From a virus (taxonomy: Duplodnaviria; Caudoviricetes), in IMG/VR virus record IMGVR_UViG_3300032123_000052, positions 96,001-160,000 of that record: a stretch of 64,000 bases of DNA. One strand, written 5' to 3'. The position numbers and the translations under genes were made by a program. The notes under the pieces were generated by a model, which did not search any database, was not told the DNA's origin, and saw only the letters and a list, made by a program, of their open reading frames with translations. This document shows, piece by piece, positions 26,764 through 56,821 of the stretch (position 1 is the stretch's first letter; each line of letters begins with the position of its first letter).

Positions 26764-27582
26764 ATGCATATGCCACCTCTAACAAAAGTGGATCTGCAAG
26801 AGTTGATAGACCAATCAGGCGGTTGGGACTGGGAAGATGCTCACGTATCTCAGGCTTATATTTCCCCTCATGGTATTGACACAAAAGAATCGATTGCAAT
26901 AAATGATATTATTGAATCGGGAACCGTTCTTATCGCCGCAGGTCCGTCCGATCTGGATAAGGCTGTAGAAGATCCTGATGGTTTTAGGGTCGTCCCTATC
27001 GGTCTCATCGAAACGGCACAGATAAGTATGAATAAACCATTGAGTCGGATATTCGAAATCGGCTCAAAACTCAGCTATATTATACCGGGTCGTACCGTTG
27101 GTGGGATAAGTCTAAGCAGGGTATTTTTTGATGGACCAAGTTTACTTAAAGCAATATATATGGGCGAGGTAAAAGCTGACTTTGCCACACAGGATAAAAA
27201 ATTTGCAAAATTTACCTCGAATCCTTATCATGTGGATGGGGAAGAAAAATATCAGAAGTTTGCCAATATCGGTTCGGGAAACTTGGCGATGAACCTTGCC
27301 TCGTCTTTCTTTGAACAACCTATTGGTCTGGCGTTTTATTTCAAAGACCAGCAGGACGATACTGTCGGACAGACCTATTTTGAAGGGTGTCGTGTCAGCA
27401 CGCTCAATCTTGGTATATCAGCTAATATGAATGTGCTTACCGAATCTATCAATATGGAGTTTATTCGCTGCAGGCCAATTAACACTGCTGCCTCGAAAAA
27501 TTACATTAAGGGCGACAATCTGGCTGATCTTAATATTGTCTCTGCGCAGACCAACTGGGATCAAAGCGTTGTCGATGGTTAA
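26764..27582 (+). CDS. tail tube protein
   Basis: Follows sheath; IGLIETAQI...RIFEIGS...IPGRT.G.I.LSRVFFDG pattern. Confidence 0.75.
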   Translation: MHMPPLTKVDLQELIDQSGGWDWEDAHVSQAYISPHGIDTKESIAINDIIESGTVLIAAGPSDLDKAVEDPDGFRVVPIGLIETAQISMNKPLSRIFEIGSKLSYIIPGRTVGGISLSRVFFDGPSLLKAIYMGEVKADFATQDKKFAKFTSNPYHVDGEEKYQKFANIGSGNLAMNLASSFFEQPIGLAFYFKDQQDDTVGQTYFEGCRVSTLNLGISANMNVLTESINMEFIRCRPINTAASKNYIKGDNLADLNIVSAQTNWDQSVVDG

Positions 27583-27604
27583 TTGAGAAATTCTTCTAAT
27601 AGCT

Positions 27605-27640
27605 AAAAAAAAAGAGAGCTGATTTCTGCTCTCTTTTTTA
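27605..27640. terminator. bidirectional intrinsic terminator
   Basis: A-run AAAGAGAGC-8 nt-GCTCTCTTT T-run between convergent blocks. Confidence 0.8.
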
Positions 27641-27659
27641 TTTTCTCTAACTAAAACTA

Positions 27660-28030
27660 GACCGAGTTTGGCTATTATATTTTGGCGGAGCCGAAATTGC
27701 ATCTCCAGATGCCAAACCGTTCACCACCAGCACTTTTACTGGTGGTCTAAAAAAGTAAAAAATTTTTAACCCTGCTGAAACAGCAGAATATAAAAATTCT
27801 TAGAGAAAAAAAACTCCAACTTAATATCGCTCAGTATTGCATTTGTAATTACCACCACCAGTCACCCCGGGCCCATCCGTTGGAGACACCCCCAACCTTC
27901 CGATAACCATATAATTACCACTCCAGTGGTATTTTATACCTTGACGAAACGTCAAGTGTAAAATCTTGGAGTTAATATCAATCATATCCGTTGCTCATAA
28001 AAGTTAAAGTAAAATAACTGCTTTCATAAA
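27660..28030 (-). ncRNA. candidate structured RNA / hairpin array
   Basis: At least six hairpins (27699-27712, 27723-27746, 27772-27786, 27879-27896, 27916-27931, 27940-27956); two gain G-U pairs on the - strand; no ORF. Confidence 0.45.
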
Positions 28031-28035
28031 TATTA

Positions 28036-28587
28036 TTAACACATTTCGTTCTTTTTTATTTTTAATTTACCCATTTTTACCCACCTACAAATAGTCGTAG
28101 GCTTTACATGGTGTATCTCGGCATACTTTAAAAGTATGCCTGATTTAACTTTTTTCTTTGAACCAATTTTGGGCCCTCTCGTTAAATCCGTCTTAGGTTT
28201 AAACTCATATTCAATAGGCATTATCTCACCGCATTTCGCCCAACCGGGAACCCACCGGAAGGTTTTTCCATTTACTACAGCCAGAGCAGATGTCAGAGAT
28301 ATGTTAAACCCCCTACCCAATTCAGCAGCGCTTACACCATTCTTCAAACTCAATTGCCGGATTTTTTTTACCTGCGATATAGTAAGATTGGAACTTTTTA
28401 AGTATCTCTGCTGCATTTTTTTTGATACTTTTCTTGGAGGAATCAAATCAAAAACATGATGAAGCACACTATTTGGCCGGCAATTGAACTTTCTGGCAAC
28501 ATATAGTACAGCATACCCTTCATCCACAAGACTCCGTATCTGCTGTACCTGTGCCGAAGATAATTTGCTGTGATATTTACTTTTCAT
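28036..28587 (-). CDS. triple helix-turn-helix DNA-binding protein, 5' end displaced by IS insertion
   Basis: Two (K/N)L(S/T)..QV..IR...A..F repeats plus a C-terminal VKPTTICRWVK HTH; native start rebuilt at 29846. Confidence 0.7.
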   Translation of the reverse strand: MKSKYHSKLSSAQVQQIRSLVDEGYAVLYVARKFNCRPNSVLHHVFDLIPPRKVSKKMQQRYLKSSNLTISQVKKIRQLSLKNGVSAAELGRGFNISLTSALAVVNGKTFRWVPGWAKCGEIMPIEYEFKPKTDLTRGPKIGSKKKVKSGILLKYAEIHHVKPTTICRWVKMGKLKIKKNEMC

Positions 28588-28596
28588 AATTTTTAC

Positions 28597-29828
28597 GCAA
28601 GGAAACCTCGACCCTTGTGGTCGGGGAGGAATTGCGCCCTCCTATTAAATTAAAGTTTGACTATTTCAATACAAATATAGTATATTGTTTACTGTGAAAA
28701 CAATAAGAACTATTAAACTGAAATTCAATGGGAATCATAAAGCCAATCAAGTGCTTCCATGTTGGCTTAACGCCTGTAATTGGCTTTCTAAAATAGTCTT
28801 TGATTCTAAAGAAATTAACTCTAACAGGCTCTCTCAAGCATATTACAAAACTGTCCGTGAAAAATTTAAACTTACTTCCCAATTGACTTGTACCCTTTTT
28901 AGAACTGTTTCTGCAACATATAAAACTCAAAAAACTAATAAAGAATGGAATCTTTGTATTTATAGAAAGAAATCTATTCCCGTTGTTTGGAAAAGAGACT
29001 TTGCTCGAACCAAAAAAAACATCACTCTCTGGGCTGACCCTATTATGTTTCAAGATTCTCGACTTATTCCTGATAATTGGAAAGATTCTAAAATTTTTCT
29101 TAAAAAGGGACAGTGGTTTTTGAATTTGTCTTATGAAATTGACATCCCTGAACCAAAAGATAAAGGAACTATCGTAGGAGTAGATCAAGGAATCAAAAGA
29201 CTGTTTGTAGCTTCTGATTCTCAAAATAATAAATTGTTTTATAAATCAAACTATCTTAACCATAAACTTTCTAATATCCGAAAAGCAAGAGCTAAAGTAC
29301 AAACGGTTGGAACCCGTTCTTCCAGAAAACTTCTTGAAAGAATGTCTGGCCACGAGGCTTCCGTAACCGAACATGCTGTGCATGTTGCTTCTAAAAGACT
29401 TGTAAAATGGGCTTGTAAAGTAGGGGCGCGAAAGATTGTGGTTGAAGATTTGTCTAACATACGAGAGTCCTCTTTGAAAAAGGGAAAACAGCTTCGTAGT
29501 AAAATCAATCGCTGGCCTTATGCCTTGTTTACTTTTTTTATTACATACAAAGCTGCAACGCTGGGTATTACTGTTGAGCGGGTTTCCCCAAAAAACACTT
29601 CTCGCATGTGTAGCAAGTGTGGTCATATTGATGAATCCAATCGAAATGGTTTTTCTTTTAAATGCAAATCATGCGGTTATACCGCAGATGCTGATTATAA
29701 TGCCAGCAAAAATATTGCTGGACGCTATATGTCTATCGGGTTGAACTCGATAGATACAGGGATTAGTAAACACCCTGAAAACCAAATTATCGGTTAAAGC
29801 CCCGACCCTCGTGGTCGGGGTAGTTTAC
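28597..29828 (+). mobile_element. IS200/IS605-family solo-TnpB (IS1341-type) element
   Basis: Subterminal hairpins CTCGACC-cttgt-GGTCGGG and CCCGACC-ctcgt-GGTCGGG; TTTAC target on the left; ends GTAGTTTAC; removal restores an in-frame host gene; no tnpA. Confidence 0.85.
28685..29797 (+). CDS. tnpB: RNA-guided endonuclease TnpB
   Basis: RuvC residues GVDQG, VVEDL and ADYNA intact; CSKC...CKSC zinc ribbon; only + strand gene in the early block. Confidence 0.92.
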   Translation: MFTVKTIRTIKLKFNGNHKANQVLPCWLNACNWLSKIVFDSKEINSNRLSQAYYKTVREKFKLTSQLTCTLFRTVSATYKTQKTNKEWNLCIYRKKSIPVVWKRDFARTKKNITLWADPIMFQDSRLIPDNWKDSKIFLKKGQWFLNLSYEIDIPEPKDKGTIVGVDQGIKRLFVASDSQNNKLFYKSNYLNHKLSNIRKARAKVQTVGTRSSRKLLERMSGHEASVTEHAVHVASKRLVKWACKVGARKIVVEDLSNIRESSLKKGKQLRSKINRWPYALFTFFITYKAATLGITVERVSPKNTSRMCSKCGHIDESNRNGFSFKCKSCGYTADADYNASKNIAGRYMSIGLNSIDTGISKHPENQIIG

Positions 29829-29848
29829 TATTCTTGTTTTATCCATTT
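29650..29848 (+). ncRNA. predicted TnpB omega RNA with flank-derived guide TATTCTTGTTTTATCCATTT (5' boundary approximate)
   Basis: Inferred from established TnpB architecture; right-end hairpin visible. Confidence 0.55.
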
Positions 29849-29879
29849 AATTTTCTCCAATTGTTTAAGATGAGTTTAG

Positions 29880-30345
29880 TACTCATGTTATATAGGGAAG
29901 TGTGGAGATTGCTCCCCACACCCCCTTTGCAGTATACGATTCTAGCTGCAACTTACCATTGAGTAATAAAAAGGACTTTTATTTCCCAAGAGCCTTCAAT
30001 TATCGCTGAAGCGGCGATGGAACTTAGAACCATACTTGGAAAAGATTTCTCAAACTAAAGTTCGAGGAGTTCGGCGAGGTTATCGTTCCGCTGGGTTCTT
30101 ACGGCAGCATACGAGACCTGGCATCGAGATCCACGATCGCAACACTTCCCGAGCCGGTCGAGCCGACCACCACCTTATACGAGTCGCGCTTTGATTTACT
30201 CCAGTAAATCAGCGACCAAACCAAGATGTTGACCTTGCAGGTCAACGTCATTGGTTCTGAGTATAAGGTGGTATGAGTAAACGATGTTGAAACAACACCG
30301 CGTTCATATCCTTTGAGAAAAAAGGGGTAAAGAAAATAATTAACC
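29880..30345 (-). ncRNA. large structured non-coding RNA candidate, partly tmRNA-like
   Basis: Visibly GC-richer and ORF-free; 12-bp helix 30169-30180/30261-30272 closing a multibranch domain; 9-bp long-range helix 29895-29903/30142-30150; consensus promoter directly upstream. Confidence 0.65.
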
Positions 30346-30353
30346 CATTCACC

Positions 30354-30387
30354 ATAATAGTTATTTCAAATTTGTATAAAAAATAAC
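30354..30387 (-). promoter_or_regulatory. phage promoter motif copy
   Basis: GTTATT-N13-TGAAATAAC-TATTAT. Confidence 0.65.
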
Positions 30388-30394
30388 ATCAGTA

Positions 30395-30700
30395 TCATAC
30401 CCTTATCTTGTCGTAATATTTCTTTTCCTTTTGCAGACCCTCAATAACACTTTGAACCTTACCGTTATCAAAAATAATAACTGTCGGAAGAAACATAACA
30501 GAATATTGTATTGCTACATCTCTATCTTTAACGAAATCAAGCTCGACAAGCTCAACATCATTAATTTTTTTCATTATTTTTCTGAGAATCGGCTTTACCA
30601 CATTACAGTGGTGGCACAAATCGCTTGAAAAAAAGACAACAGTTCGCCTTTTCTCTATTAGAACCAGTCTTCTAAATGTGCAATTCGCCATTTTCTTCAT
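30395..30700 (-). CDS. thioredoxin
   Basis: CHHC active site; YSVMFLPTVIIFDNG cis-Pro motif. Confidence 0.85.
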   Translation of the reverse strand: MKKMANCTFRRLVLIEKRRTVVFFSSDLCHHCNVVKPILRKIMKKINDVELVELDFVKDRDVAIQYSVMFLPTVIIFDNGKVQSVIEGLQKEKKYYDKIRV

Positions 30701-31083
30701 TGTGTTTCATGAAACACATCGCCAAGAATGCTATCAACCTCTTCCTGAACAGTTTTTGGTGTCCTTCTTGTTCCTGGAAAAAATTCCTTCATATATGTGA
30801 ATCCTTCATGACAATTAGAACATGGCTTCCCGGTGTCAGTCCATGCTTCACAATACCCGCATCCCGATCTCCCAATGCGCTCATCATCTTCGATTTCTTC
30901 TATATCTTCTTGATATATTCTTAAACCACAACTAGTCACTTTTTGTATCGGCATTGTATTTAGTTGATCTGTAAAAAGATTTCTAGTGTCGATTTTAATC
31001 CATTCGCCTTCTATTGATTCAAGCTTTTTTGAATAACTGCCTAAGTACCTTTGGTAGCAATTACTCTTTAATCTTATTCTCAA
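30697..31083 (-). CDS. hypothetical protein with CxxC-CxxC
   Basis: CGYC...CSNC; GGAG upstream. Confidence 0.7.
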   Translation of the reverse strand: MRIRLKSNCYQRYLGSYSKKLESIEGEWIKIDTRNLFTDQLNTMPIQKVTSCGLRIYQEDIEEIEDDERIGRSGCGYCEAWTDTGKPCSNCHEGFTYMKEFFPGTRRTPKTVQEEVDSILGDVFHETQ

Positions 31084-46658: not shown

Positions 46659-46682
46659 ATACTTCCTCCTAAAATTTTATAG

Positions 46683-46755
46683 TACTTCCGGTAGGATTCG
46701 AACCTACGACCCCCTGCTTAAATGGCAGGTGCTCTACCAACTAAGCTACGGAAGT
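46683..46755 (-). tRNA. tRNA-Lys(TTT) with A33
   Basis: Full cloverleaf: ACTTCCG/CGGAAGT acceptor, AGCTTAGTTGGTAGAGC D arm, CCTGC-CATTTAA-GCAGG, GTAGG-TTCGAAT-CCTAC; CCA not encoded. Confidence 0.9.
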
Positions 46756-55234: not shown

Positions 55235-56821
55235 TTACCCCACTATTGATTGAATAAAATATTCAGGGAAAAAGTGTTTATTCCTAATAAGAAAACTTCT
55301 GAATGCAGAGTCGAGGATGTAAACATTACACCAATCCTCCTTATGGCGGACTCCGCGGCCAGTAACCTGGATTAAAGTTAGTGAGGTTTTCCAGAGATAC
55401 CAGTCTGGATCAATTTCTTTTCTTCGCTTGATCTGCGGATCGCCAAGGAATCCAAATGGCATCTTGCAAATTATGATGAATCTAGCAAGATCATCTTTGA
55501 GATCAACCCCTTCACTTAACGATGGAGATATCATAACCTTTGGATCTTTATGTTTTATAAAATATGAAAGCGCCTCACTGCGATCACCACCATCATGCCC
55601 AACCAACCTTCTTTTATTTGTTATCGCAACACTATCCGTGATGTATCTCGATATTTTAAAACTATGTGTATAAATAAGACCTTTATGAGGCATATGGACA
55701 TCCATAATCTCATTTACTGCCTTTGTTACTTTTGGTAATGTCTCATCAATATTAGTATAACTCATTGATCCGGTATTTACAAATATCGTCTTCCGGTTCT
55801 CAACAGGAAAGGTTGGTGGTACCTGATAGAACTCAGCTTCATCGGGAGGTATCCCAAGGTTGCGACAAAAGTTCTTCTTATCCAGTATAGTGGCAGACAT
55901 CATAAGATGACGCTTGCCAAAACTGAATAAAAGATCATCAGCATACGGTGCAACAGTAACTGGTTTAAAGAATATCTTATCGTCATCAGGGTTATTTTTT
56001 CCGCGCTGAATTTCGTGAACCCATTCGTTCTGCTCACAAGTCTTAAGGAAATTATCAATCTTCTTGATCTGTGTATTCAGTCTGGTATTCATCGATGATA
56101 GTTTTTTTATCTGCTCGATTATATTGTCACGACCAGCGACAGAAACTAATAGGTCTGATTTTAAACTCAGTATGTCAGATAAGTTACTTTTAACCTCATC
56201 AGCAAAACAATCTGAAATCTGATTAAGCCAGTCAATATAATCTTCAACCTTATCGTATTCTGGTATATCAGAAAGTGACCCTAGTTTTCTCATATATTTC
56301 GATGTAAACTTGATTTCAACAAAACCCATTAACTCTCTATCCACCCCATGACATTCATCACAAACGATTAGGTTTGCAGGTTTAAATATTTTTGCATATT
56401 GAGTTGCATAAAGAAAATATGTATAATTTAACAATGCTATTTTAGCATTAAGCGCAGCACCCTTTGCCGATTCATATGGACATTCGGTGATATCTGGACA
56501 CCTTCCTGTTTGACAAAATCCATTGTTACAAAAGCTATCCATATGAGCGCAGCTGTAATTGTTACGGCCCATCAACTCAACAAATTCCGGCGATCCGTAA
56601 TCATATACGTACTGGGTCTGCAGGACTTTCTGAGATGTTAATAGGTATGTTGGCGCAAAGTGCATACCAAGGGCAACAGCGATCGGGGATTTTCCCGACC
56701 CTGTTGGTGCCTCTAATATTACATATTTAATCCCACTGTCAAAAGCTTTTTCTATCGTAAGAATGGTCTCGCGTTGATACCGGCGGTAGGTGCCATGCGG
56801 AAAGTGAGTTAGTATATCCAA
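55235..56821 (-). CDS. DinG/YoaA/XPD-family SF2 helicase
   Basis: APTGSGKS Walker A, Cys cluster, DECH, MSAT, EGVD and Q..GRGVR motifs. Confidence 0.9.
   Translation of the reverse strand: MDILTHFPHGTYRRYQRETILTIEKAFDSGIKYVILEAPTGSGKSPIAVALGMHFAPTYLLTSQKVLQTQYVYDYGSPEFVELMGRNNYSCAHMDSFCNNGFCQTGRCPDITECPYESAKGAALNAKIALLNYTYFLYATQYAKIFKPANLIVCDECHGVDRELMGFVEIKFTSKYMRKLGSLSDIPEYDKVEDYIDWLNQISDCFADEVKSNLSDILSLKSDLLVSVAGRDNIIEQIKKLSSMNTRLNTQIKKIDNFLKTCEQNEWVHEIQRGKNNPDDDKIFFKPVTVAPYADDLLFSFGKRHLMMSATILDKKNFCRNLGIPPDEAEFYQVPPTFPVENRKTIFVNTGSMSYTNIDETLPKVTKAVNEIMDVHMPHKGLIYTHSFKISRYITDSVAITNKRRLVGHDGGDRSEALSYFIKHKDPKVMISPSLSEGVDLKDDLARFIIICKMPFGFLGDPQIKRRKEIDPDWYLWKTSLTLIQVTGRGVRHKEDWCNVYILDSAFRSFLIRNKHFFPEYFIQSIVG

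Follow-up and report, generated by a model that had tools for sequence, protein, structure and literature searches.

A candidate ~1-kb, three-module noncoding RNA gene, split by an inserted gene cassette, in a clade of marine-sediment jumbo phages

The window analyzed here is a 64,000-nucleotide stretch of DNA taken from an IMG/VR phage record of 208 kb, in which it occupies bases 96001-160000. On its - strand, a complete thioredoxin gene (30395-30700) is separated from the tnpB gene of a transposable element by ~530 bases that contain no ORF longer than 52 amino acids. An earlier note, made from the window alone, had described the segment 29880-30345 within this gap as a ~460-nt structured noncoding RNA, transcribed from the - strand behind a copy of a phage promoter. 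Both the RNA-like character and the promoter copy were found again. No ORF in the segment exceeds 52 aa, and a coding or pseudogene reading was dropped since all six frames are broken and a conserved ORF is absent. The GC content of the segment is ~0.50, compared with 0.30-0.40 in the flanking DNA, all of the helices named in the note are present, and the minimum free energy (MFE) of the - strand, -162.3 kcal/mol, is better than that of any of 100 shuffles (z = -6.48). The + strand also folds strongly, with a z-score of -6.8. Most of the large ORFs of the phage have no Pfam or PHROG match, and the two databases gave no functional clue from the proteins that neighbor the RNA. The leftward gene block includes an XPD/Rad3-type helicase (55235-56821; Pfam DEAD_2 and Helicase_C_2).

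Relatives of the segment were found via homologues of the thioredoxin gene, a pattern scan, and the 90%-identity cluster of a neighboring 270-aa protein. In the contigs with a close thioredoxin homologue, 1040-1070 non-coding bases come after this gene, and then the convergent genes of the 270-aa and 852-aa structural proteins, as in the window. The RNA is known from six lineages, which are the window, L017, L020 (merged with L019, L021, L022 and L042), L023, L043 and L047 (merged with L048), and the identity among them is 68-80% over the aligned blocks. Several other searches returned little: blastn of the segment against 50,697 phage records gave no match, scans of viral contigs seeded with the thioredoxin or the HTH protein described below gave no relatives, and exact-pattern scans yielded only two already known relatives in viral contigs (plus chance matches that were removed by nhmmer), only L042 (the same as L021) in metagenome contigs, and nothing in genome contigs apart from a later chance match in Staphylococcus that had no nhmmer support. 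The only sequencing runs listed for the segment are two DNA runs from a single marine-sediment sample, which may be its source; no RNA run was among them. In L043, the ORF directly upstream of the RNA (L043:4869-5285, - strand) encodes 138 aa and is not of thioredoxin size. The 270-aa structural protein (26770-27582, + strand) is 91-96% identical across the clade, and one member of its cluster, NCBI RLG45549.1, is filed under a MAG labeled as a Thermoproteota/Korarchaeota archaeon, a label that reflects a binning artefact or else points toward the host. The conserved phage proteins encoded nearby include ones of 128 aa and 231 aa.

Each of the five relatives has the non-coding stretch in one piece of 960-1070 nt that lacks a conserved ORF; in two of them it occupies L043:3820-4846 and L023:5371-6332, both on the - strand. 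The stretch aligns with window positions 30394-29885 joined directly to ~27985-27583, and the unit that runs from the promoter motif to a strong terminator corresponds to 30348-29892 plus 27990-27605. Since this unit is continuous in the relatives, the window must carry a 1.9-kb insertion in its middle (27991-29891, - strand), composed of a helix-turn-helix (HTH) gene cassette and an insertion sequence, which is absent from the five relatives. The ~460-nt unit of the earlier note is a real, conserved folded domain, which we call domain A (29892-30348), but it is only the 5’ domain of a ~1-kb gene, the 3’ half of which (domain B, 27990-27605) lies past the insertion. The 3’ boundary that had been placed at 29880 moves to 29892, and the outermost helix of the MFE structure, UACUCAU/AUGAGUA, uses bases 29886-29880 of the inserted cassette and is not conserved.

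The cassette contains the ribosome-binding site (RBS) and start of the HTH gene (ATG at 29846-29844), a TnpB insertion sequence, the remaining HTH ORF (28587-28036) and a tail of ~45 nt. The insertion sequence is a solo TnpB (IS605 OrfB) element at ~28597-29828 with tnpB at 28685-29797 on the + strand, as recognized by Pfam and by its matching end hairpins (28603-28626 and 29797-29820). Related TnpB elements in L002 and L003 (79% and 75% amino acid identity) share DNA with the window over 28581-29783 only. An allele free of the insertion sequence is found in L014, which is 89% identical over the HTH gene and joins window positions 29863-29829 directly to 28594-27909; this junction places the insertion of the element within the opening codons of the HTH gene. 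In L014, domain B comes directly after the HTH gene, and the upstream 111 nt (L014:1-111) are unlike domain A, although the contig is too short to judge domain A. A moron-like HTH cassette entered the linker between domain A and the downstream modules 2 and 3, and the TnpB insertion sequence hit the HTH gene later.

These boundaries bear on whether the RNA belongs to the TnpB element, as an omega or right-end RNA or as a non-autonomous derivative. Like an omega RNA, it is a structured noncoding RNA beside tnpB, which ends only 83 nt from the segment. However, an omega RNA shares the strand of tnpB, overlapping its 3’ end, and extends no further than the right end of the element, whereas the RNA at 29892-30348 lies outside the element and its selected strand is opposite to tnpB. 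The positions of the two end hairpins, the limit of the DNA shared among related elements, and the empty site in L014 all exclude the RNA from the element, and five relatives bear it without an adjoining TnpB. This reading is already refuted by the element boundaries, and we give it practically no weight.

The position of the cassette also raises the possibility that domain A is a cis-regulatory, riboswitch-like leader of the HTH gene that switches between two conformations. When the insertion sequence is removed, domain A directly precedes the RBS and ATG of the HTH gene, and the sequence ACACUUCCC can pair in the window with a local as well as a distal partner, from which the earlier note had proposed the two conformations. 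The distal complement, GGGAAGUGU, does exist as an inverted repeat, but its pairing beats shuffles in this window only, where ~1 in 100 shuffles matches it; it is at about the shuffle level in L020, L023 and L043 and marginal in L017, and the idea of two conformations is therefore unsupported. In addition, the five relatives carry the RNA without an HTH gene at that place, and there it extends through modules 2 and 3 to the terminator and has no gene downstream, which rules it out as a conserved leader. Neither the 186-kb genome of L043, which is complete, nor that of L023, which is 80% complete, contains the HTH gene at all. HTH homologues elsewhere (L008-L016) lie in ordinary operons with no such RNA upstream, which closed the HTH gene as a route to RNA homologues; the 540-nt gap upstream of the homologue in L016 is unrelated to the RNA. 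Judged from the sequences of the relatives, the leader reading appears largely refuted, and we regard it as extremely improbable. The ~460-nt unit thus reads as a domain, neither a whole gene nor a switch of the HTH gene.

The alignment of the six lineages shows invariant single-stranded blocks alternating with helices that change in sequence but keep their pairing, with variable-length, GC-rich expansions between them in which the alignment is unreliable. RNAalifold on five sequences found compensatory changes in 33 of 120 predicted pairs in domain A and 14 of 57 in domain B. The statistics rest on six lineages of one phage clade, so the covariation figures are modest, and they derive partly from the same alignment that yielded the structure: the six-sequence consensus comprises 95 pairs in domain A and 51 in domain B, with 94.4% and 92.7% of cells canonical and with 25 and 10 pairs changed on both sides, respectively. 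The mean number of both-side changes in shuffles was 11.1 for A and 2.9 for B, with none of 500 shuffles reaching the observed count, and 3-9 and 2-5 pairs changed on both sides when the partner was slid by 1-3 columns. For the core of module 1, the model-fitted alignment has 95.9% paired cells and 14 pairs changed on both sides, compared with 6.0 in shuffles (0 of 500 reach 14) and 0-4 in slid controls. The structure thus withstands the covariation test by which the earlier note had proposed to refute it, with compensatory changes across six lineages in excess of shuffles, and as in structured noncoding RNAs generally, compensatory pairing coincides with strand-specific G-U pairs and the lack of a conserved ORF. 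The split copy in the window is canonical in 91 of the 95 consensus pairs of domain A and 49 of the 51 of domain B, and it deviates no more than the other lineages at conserved columns; the sequence therefore gives no sign that the split RNA is decaying.

The pairing is specific to one strand. The sense RNA, encoded on the - strand of the window, folds with an MFE 26-42 kcal/mol better than the antisense RNA in each of five full-length sequences, and these folds contain 35-49 G-U pairs in the sense and 16-24 in the antisense direction. Among the cells of the consensus pairs, G-U occurs 77 times in the sense versus 12 times in the antisense reading of domain A and 40 versus 8 times in domain B, and merely 82-83% of the pairs are canonical when read on the opposite strand. 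This asymmetry also weighs on the view that the locus is a strand-specific DNA-level element or an RNA-primed replication origin. In ColE1, with its RNA II, and at T4 origins, a promoter-driven structured transcript primes DNA synthesis, and the order seen here, an invariant promoter motif and then a conserved structured transcript, would suit such a role, as would the strong fold of the + strand as DNA. The G-U asymmetry, though, points to selection on the RNA or single-stranded DNA of one strand and not on a duplex cruciform, the locus lies where transcription converges and not at a divergent, origin-like site, a strong terminator stands at its end, and iterons and an AT-rich unwinding element are both missing. 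A replication element is therefore very unlikely in our estimate.

Domain A combines a 5’ leader with module 1 and a 3’ subdomain, and its z-score is -6.5. Its ends pair in a 5-bp helix, AUGGG (30348-30344) with CCUAU (29896-29892), the 3’ strand of which comes right after the terminal hairpin. The helix is canonical in all lineages, with one swap from G-C to A-U in L043. This pairing indicates that domain A is closed on itself at 30348-29892, near the coordinates first proposed, and hence that it folds independently. Module 1 is closed by a helix between UUCUCAAA (30312-30319) and UUUGAGAA (30054-30047), both invariant and complementary in the six lineages. The two closing helices, of domain A and of module 1, have little or no direct covariation, and RNAalifold with six sequences prefers local hairpins over both of them.

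Within module 1, the hairpin GCGGUGUUG-UUU-CAACAUCGU (30281-30301) has 9 bp and a U-rich triloop closed by a G-C pair; it is 100% canonical, and 5 of its 9 pairs changed on both sides. A helix of 13 bp, the ACCAC helix (30273-30261/30180-30168), closes a three-way junction (30168-30273) with arms at 30259-30217 and 30216-30183. It includes the perfect 12-bp helix of the earlier note, ACCACCUUAUAC (30272-30261) with GUAUAAGGUGGU (30180-30169), which does close a junction as described; both-side changes were found in 5 of the 13 pairs, 97% of the cells pair, and the arms covary. A lineage-specific, GC-rich expansion region (30070-30167) follows, which is ~100 nt here and ~130-190 nt in the relatives, with large indels and no alignable sequence between its conserved anchors. 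The conserved block ACCUCGCC..CUCGAAC-UUUA-GUUUGAGAA (30047-30079), in which the core UAGUUUGAGAA is invariant, forms a local hairpin (30066-30049) and also carries the 3’ strand of the module-1 closing helix. In one frame, the - strand at 30079-30046 reads (Y/N)-L-A-(K/E/I)-L-L-(E/D)-L-stop, with the TAG invariant in six lineages. This frame has no start codon and no tRNA-like domain, and 4 of its 9 variable sites fall at codon position 3, which by eye is no enrichment.

The 3’ subdomain of domain A (29934-30035) consists of a helix, GUAUGGUUC/GAAUCGUAU, that surrounds a short hairpin and a 15-bp helix (29993-29955), with both-side changes in 3 pairs of the former and 5 of the latter. It is followed by the terminal hairpin GGGGGUGUGGGGA-GCAA-UCUCCACACUUCC (29925-29896), where the 13 pairs, three of them G-U, and the GCAA cap had been correctly noted earlier. 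The hairpin is kept in all lineages, with an altered sequence in L043 and L047. This 3’ part (30035-29896) is not repeated among the modules.

The RNA as a whole is built from three paralogous modules of 170-280 nt, each of which has a CUCNAAG 5’ strand, a hairpin of 6-9 bp whose U-rich triloop, usually UUU, is closed by G-C, an ACCAC helix, a lineage-specific expansion region, and a GUUNGAG 3’ strand that closes the module. Module 1 bears, in addition, the large three-way junction. Module 2 (27810-27982) is closed by ACUCCAA (27972-27966) and UUGGAGU (27819-27813) and contains the hairpin UUGACG-UUU-CGUCAA (27955-27941), an ACCAC hairpin (27931-27916) and an expansion region. Module 3 (27640-27816) is closed by UUUUCUCUAA (27809-27800) and UUAGAGAAAA (27650-27641) and contains the hairpin AUUCUGCUG-UUU-CAGCAGGGU (27789-27769), with 5 covarying pairs, a ACCACCAG hairpin (27746-27726) and an expansion region; both modules are on the - strand. 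When the closing helices are compared, that of module 1 (UUUCUCAAA/UUUGAGAAA) is invariant, that of module 2 (AACUCCAA/UUGGAGUU) is kept in 5 of 6 lineages, and that of module 3 covaries between lineages. The central pair compensates between modules 1, 2 and 3, being A-U, C-G and U-A, respectively.

The kinship of the modules was also detected by a covariance model of the module-1 core that was built from six sequences, one per lineage, and searched in 100 kb. As expected by construction, the model recovers its six source sequences. With E-values that are rough owing to the short calibration of the model, it matches module 3 of the window at 27731-27816 (4e-5 in 100 kb; 8.7e-5 genome-wide), the same site in L047, L017 and L020 (6e-5 to 5e-3), and module 2 of the window at 27913-27982 (0.02, or 1e-4 for a search confined to that region). 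The model has no match outside the RNA locus in three whole phage genomes.

At the upstream end lies the promoter-like motif TTGAAATAACTATTAT (30354-30369, - strand), a copy of the recurring motif tGGTATAACTATTATg. None of the six lineages departs from its 12-nt core, AATAACTATTAT, and the whole motif, together with the 17 bases that follow, is close to identical among them. The 208-kb genome has at least 10 copies of tGGTATAACTATTATg that lie upstream of ORFs and on the same strand as the genes, among them those at 43318-43303, 35465-35450, 54743-54728, 51974-51963 and 51043-51032 on the - strand; the copies are located 35-150 nt upstream of the start codons of leftward genes and have the look of an extended -10 element. 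Sites with up to 2 mismatches from the 12-mer core number 102, about twice the 52 ± 6 of Markov controls. We propose that transcription of the - strand would begin from this copy of the phage’s own motif. The start is likely a few bases downstream of the motif, so that the RNA would begin immediately ahead of AUGGG (30348-30344). At the other end, the intrinsic bidirectional terminator AAAAAAGAGAGC..GCUCUCUUUUUUUUU (27605-27642, - strand) is conserved in all lineages and is common to the RNA and the convergent structural-gene operon. This terminator is likely the 3’ end of the RNA, and in the relatives the transcript would run uninterrupted to it, where the convergent structural operon also ends. 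The one terminator serves both convergent gene blocks.

This arrangement could also be that of a long structured 3’ UTR, a processing or stability element of the leftward operon that has no function in trans. The RNA is positioned at the 3’ end of the leftward block, directly past its last gene and before the terminator, as such an element would be. Nevertheless, an invariant promoter motif of its own, together with unpaired blocks that do not vary and modules that recur, makes a mere 3’ UTR unlikely; a kilobase-long, multi-junction fold with these features exceeds what protection from exonucleases needs, and the gene upstream differs in L043. We consider this explanation unlikely.

Domains A and B could instead be two adjacent, separate RNA genes with the cassette between them, given that domain A is self-closed, that a search for long-range helices between A and B found none with covariation, and that an insertion is tolerated between them. 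In L020 and L023, U-rich sequence comes after the hairpin that ends domain A, and in L014 domain B is preceded by the HTH gene. The lack of a covarying A-B helix fits the tolerance of the insertion. On the other hand, no copy of the promoter motif is present between A and B, the two domains share paralogous modules, and they are always adjacent in five lineages, in constant order and strand and 0-20 nt apart. Two separate genes are accordingly the lesser prospect in our view, with perhaps a minor share of the probability, and a single gene with three modules is preferred.

No known RNA family accounts for this gene. As the earlier note had suggested, we ran cmscan against Rfam, and no family matched the RNA: with the gathering thresholds, the whole window gave tRNA only, and at E ≤ 10 the regions 28500-30900 and 27300-28300 gave only chance or terminator-like matches. 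In the uninterrupted relatives L017, L020, L023 and L043, Rfam 15 at E ≤ 1 gave nothing within the RNA. GOLLD, ROOL and OLE are present in Rfam, and HEARO, raiA and all other Rfam 15 families were likewise unmatched. The absence of RNase P, SRP and group I or II core motifs reported earlier agrees with these searches. A tmRNA was rejected, with none found by ARAGORN in the window or four relatives and the sole Rfam tmRNA match having E = 6 and lying outside the segment. A group I or II intron was rejected on the lack of an Rfam intron match, the complete upstream thioredoxin gene and the terminator that follows the RNA. A survey of intergenic regions in IMG/VR reports only motifs of 29-151 nt (PMC10690425), some of which might coincide with pieces of this RNA.

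To our knowledge, bacterial and phage noncoding RNAs of more than 500 nt with conserved complex folds are very few, for example GOLLD, ROOL, OLE and the IscB-associated HEARO RNA, and each of these is structurally or mechanistically unusual. Like GOLLD, the RNA described here is a phage-encoded noncoding RNA of more than 800 nt, ornate and multi-junction, with a variable and a conserved part. In both, a linker hosts foreign genes: the GOLLD linker can carry tRNAs (10.1101/2024.12.08.627333), and the linker here carries the HTH gene cassette. Unlike GOLLD, it has no match to the Rfam model of that family (E ≤ 1 in four relatives; E ≤ 10 in the window) and contains three internal repeats, which are not described for GOLLD. 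The tRNA-Lys(UUU) gene of the window (46682-46755, - strand) is 16 kb away, so no tRNA island adjoins the RNA, in contrast to many GOLLD and ROOL loci. ROOL is similar in being a large structured phage or prophage RNA without a known protein partner that is proposed to act as an RNA-only particle, but the RNA here is ~1.5 times longer, comes from a different habitat, marine sediment, is modularly triplicated and has no Rfam match. GOLLD and ROOL assemble into RNA-only cages. The closest kind is thus that of the large ornate phage RNAs GOLLD and ROOL; the likeness to them drawn in the earlier note holds in kind, and not as membership of either family.

A different parallel is offered by CsrB and RsmZ, which are multi-site sponge or scaffold RNAs with short GGA hairpins. 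As in these RNAs, a structural unit is repeated along the transcript, suggesting several equivalent binding sites. The units here differ in being multi-helix modules of 170-280 nt, each with its own long-range closing helix. With its three similar modules, the present RNA may offer a set of three equivalent binding sites, or its fold may be pseudo-symmetric.

We observed the conservation, covariation, strand, modular architecture and insertion history of this RNA, which belongs to no known family. On balance, we slightly favor the view that the segment is domain A of a new stand-alone, ~1-kb, three-module noncoding RNA gene of a small clade of marine-sediment jumbo phages, the product of which would be a folded particle that acts in trans. 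What favors a trans-acting particle is that the relatives speak against a conserved leader, that a mere 3’ UTR is improbable, and that one strand is under selection; the RNA would then function neither as a cis leader nor as a base-pairing regulator. If we had to guess its role, it would be that of a stand-alone RNA, either structural or a multivalent scaffold. It may be a multivalent scaffold that presents three like binding surfaces to a protein, or it may form a higher-order assembly made of RNA only, of the GOLLD and ROOL kind.

To the small group of large ornate RNAs, the locus adds a ~1-kb candidate with clear covariation and an internal three-fold modular build, and the uninterrupted relatives L023, L043 and L047 are usable for in vitro structure work. 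The cassette and the transposon in the linker, with the RNA undecayed, amount to a natural experiment on where such an RNA tolerates interruption. More tentatively, and with less confidence than in the gene itself, we suggest that this may be a new class of ~1-kb phage RNA in which an internal triplication gives rise to a pseudo-threefold particle or a trivalent scaffold, with a linker able to host gene cassettes, and that it could work as an RNA-only or RNA-protein machine during jumbo-phage infection in marine sediment.
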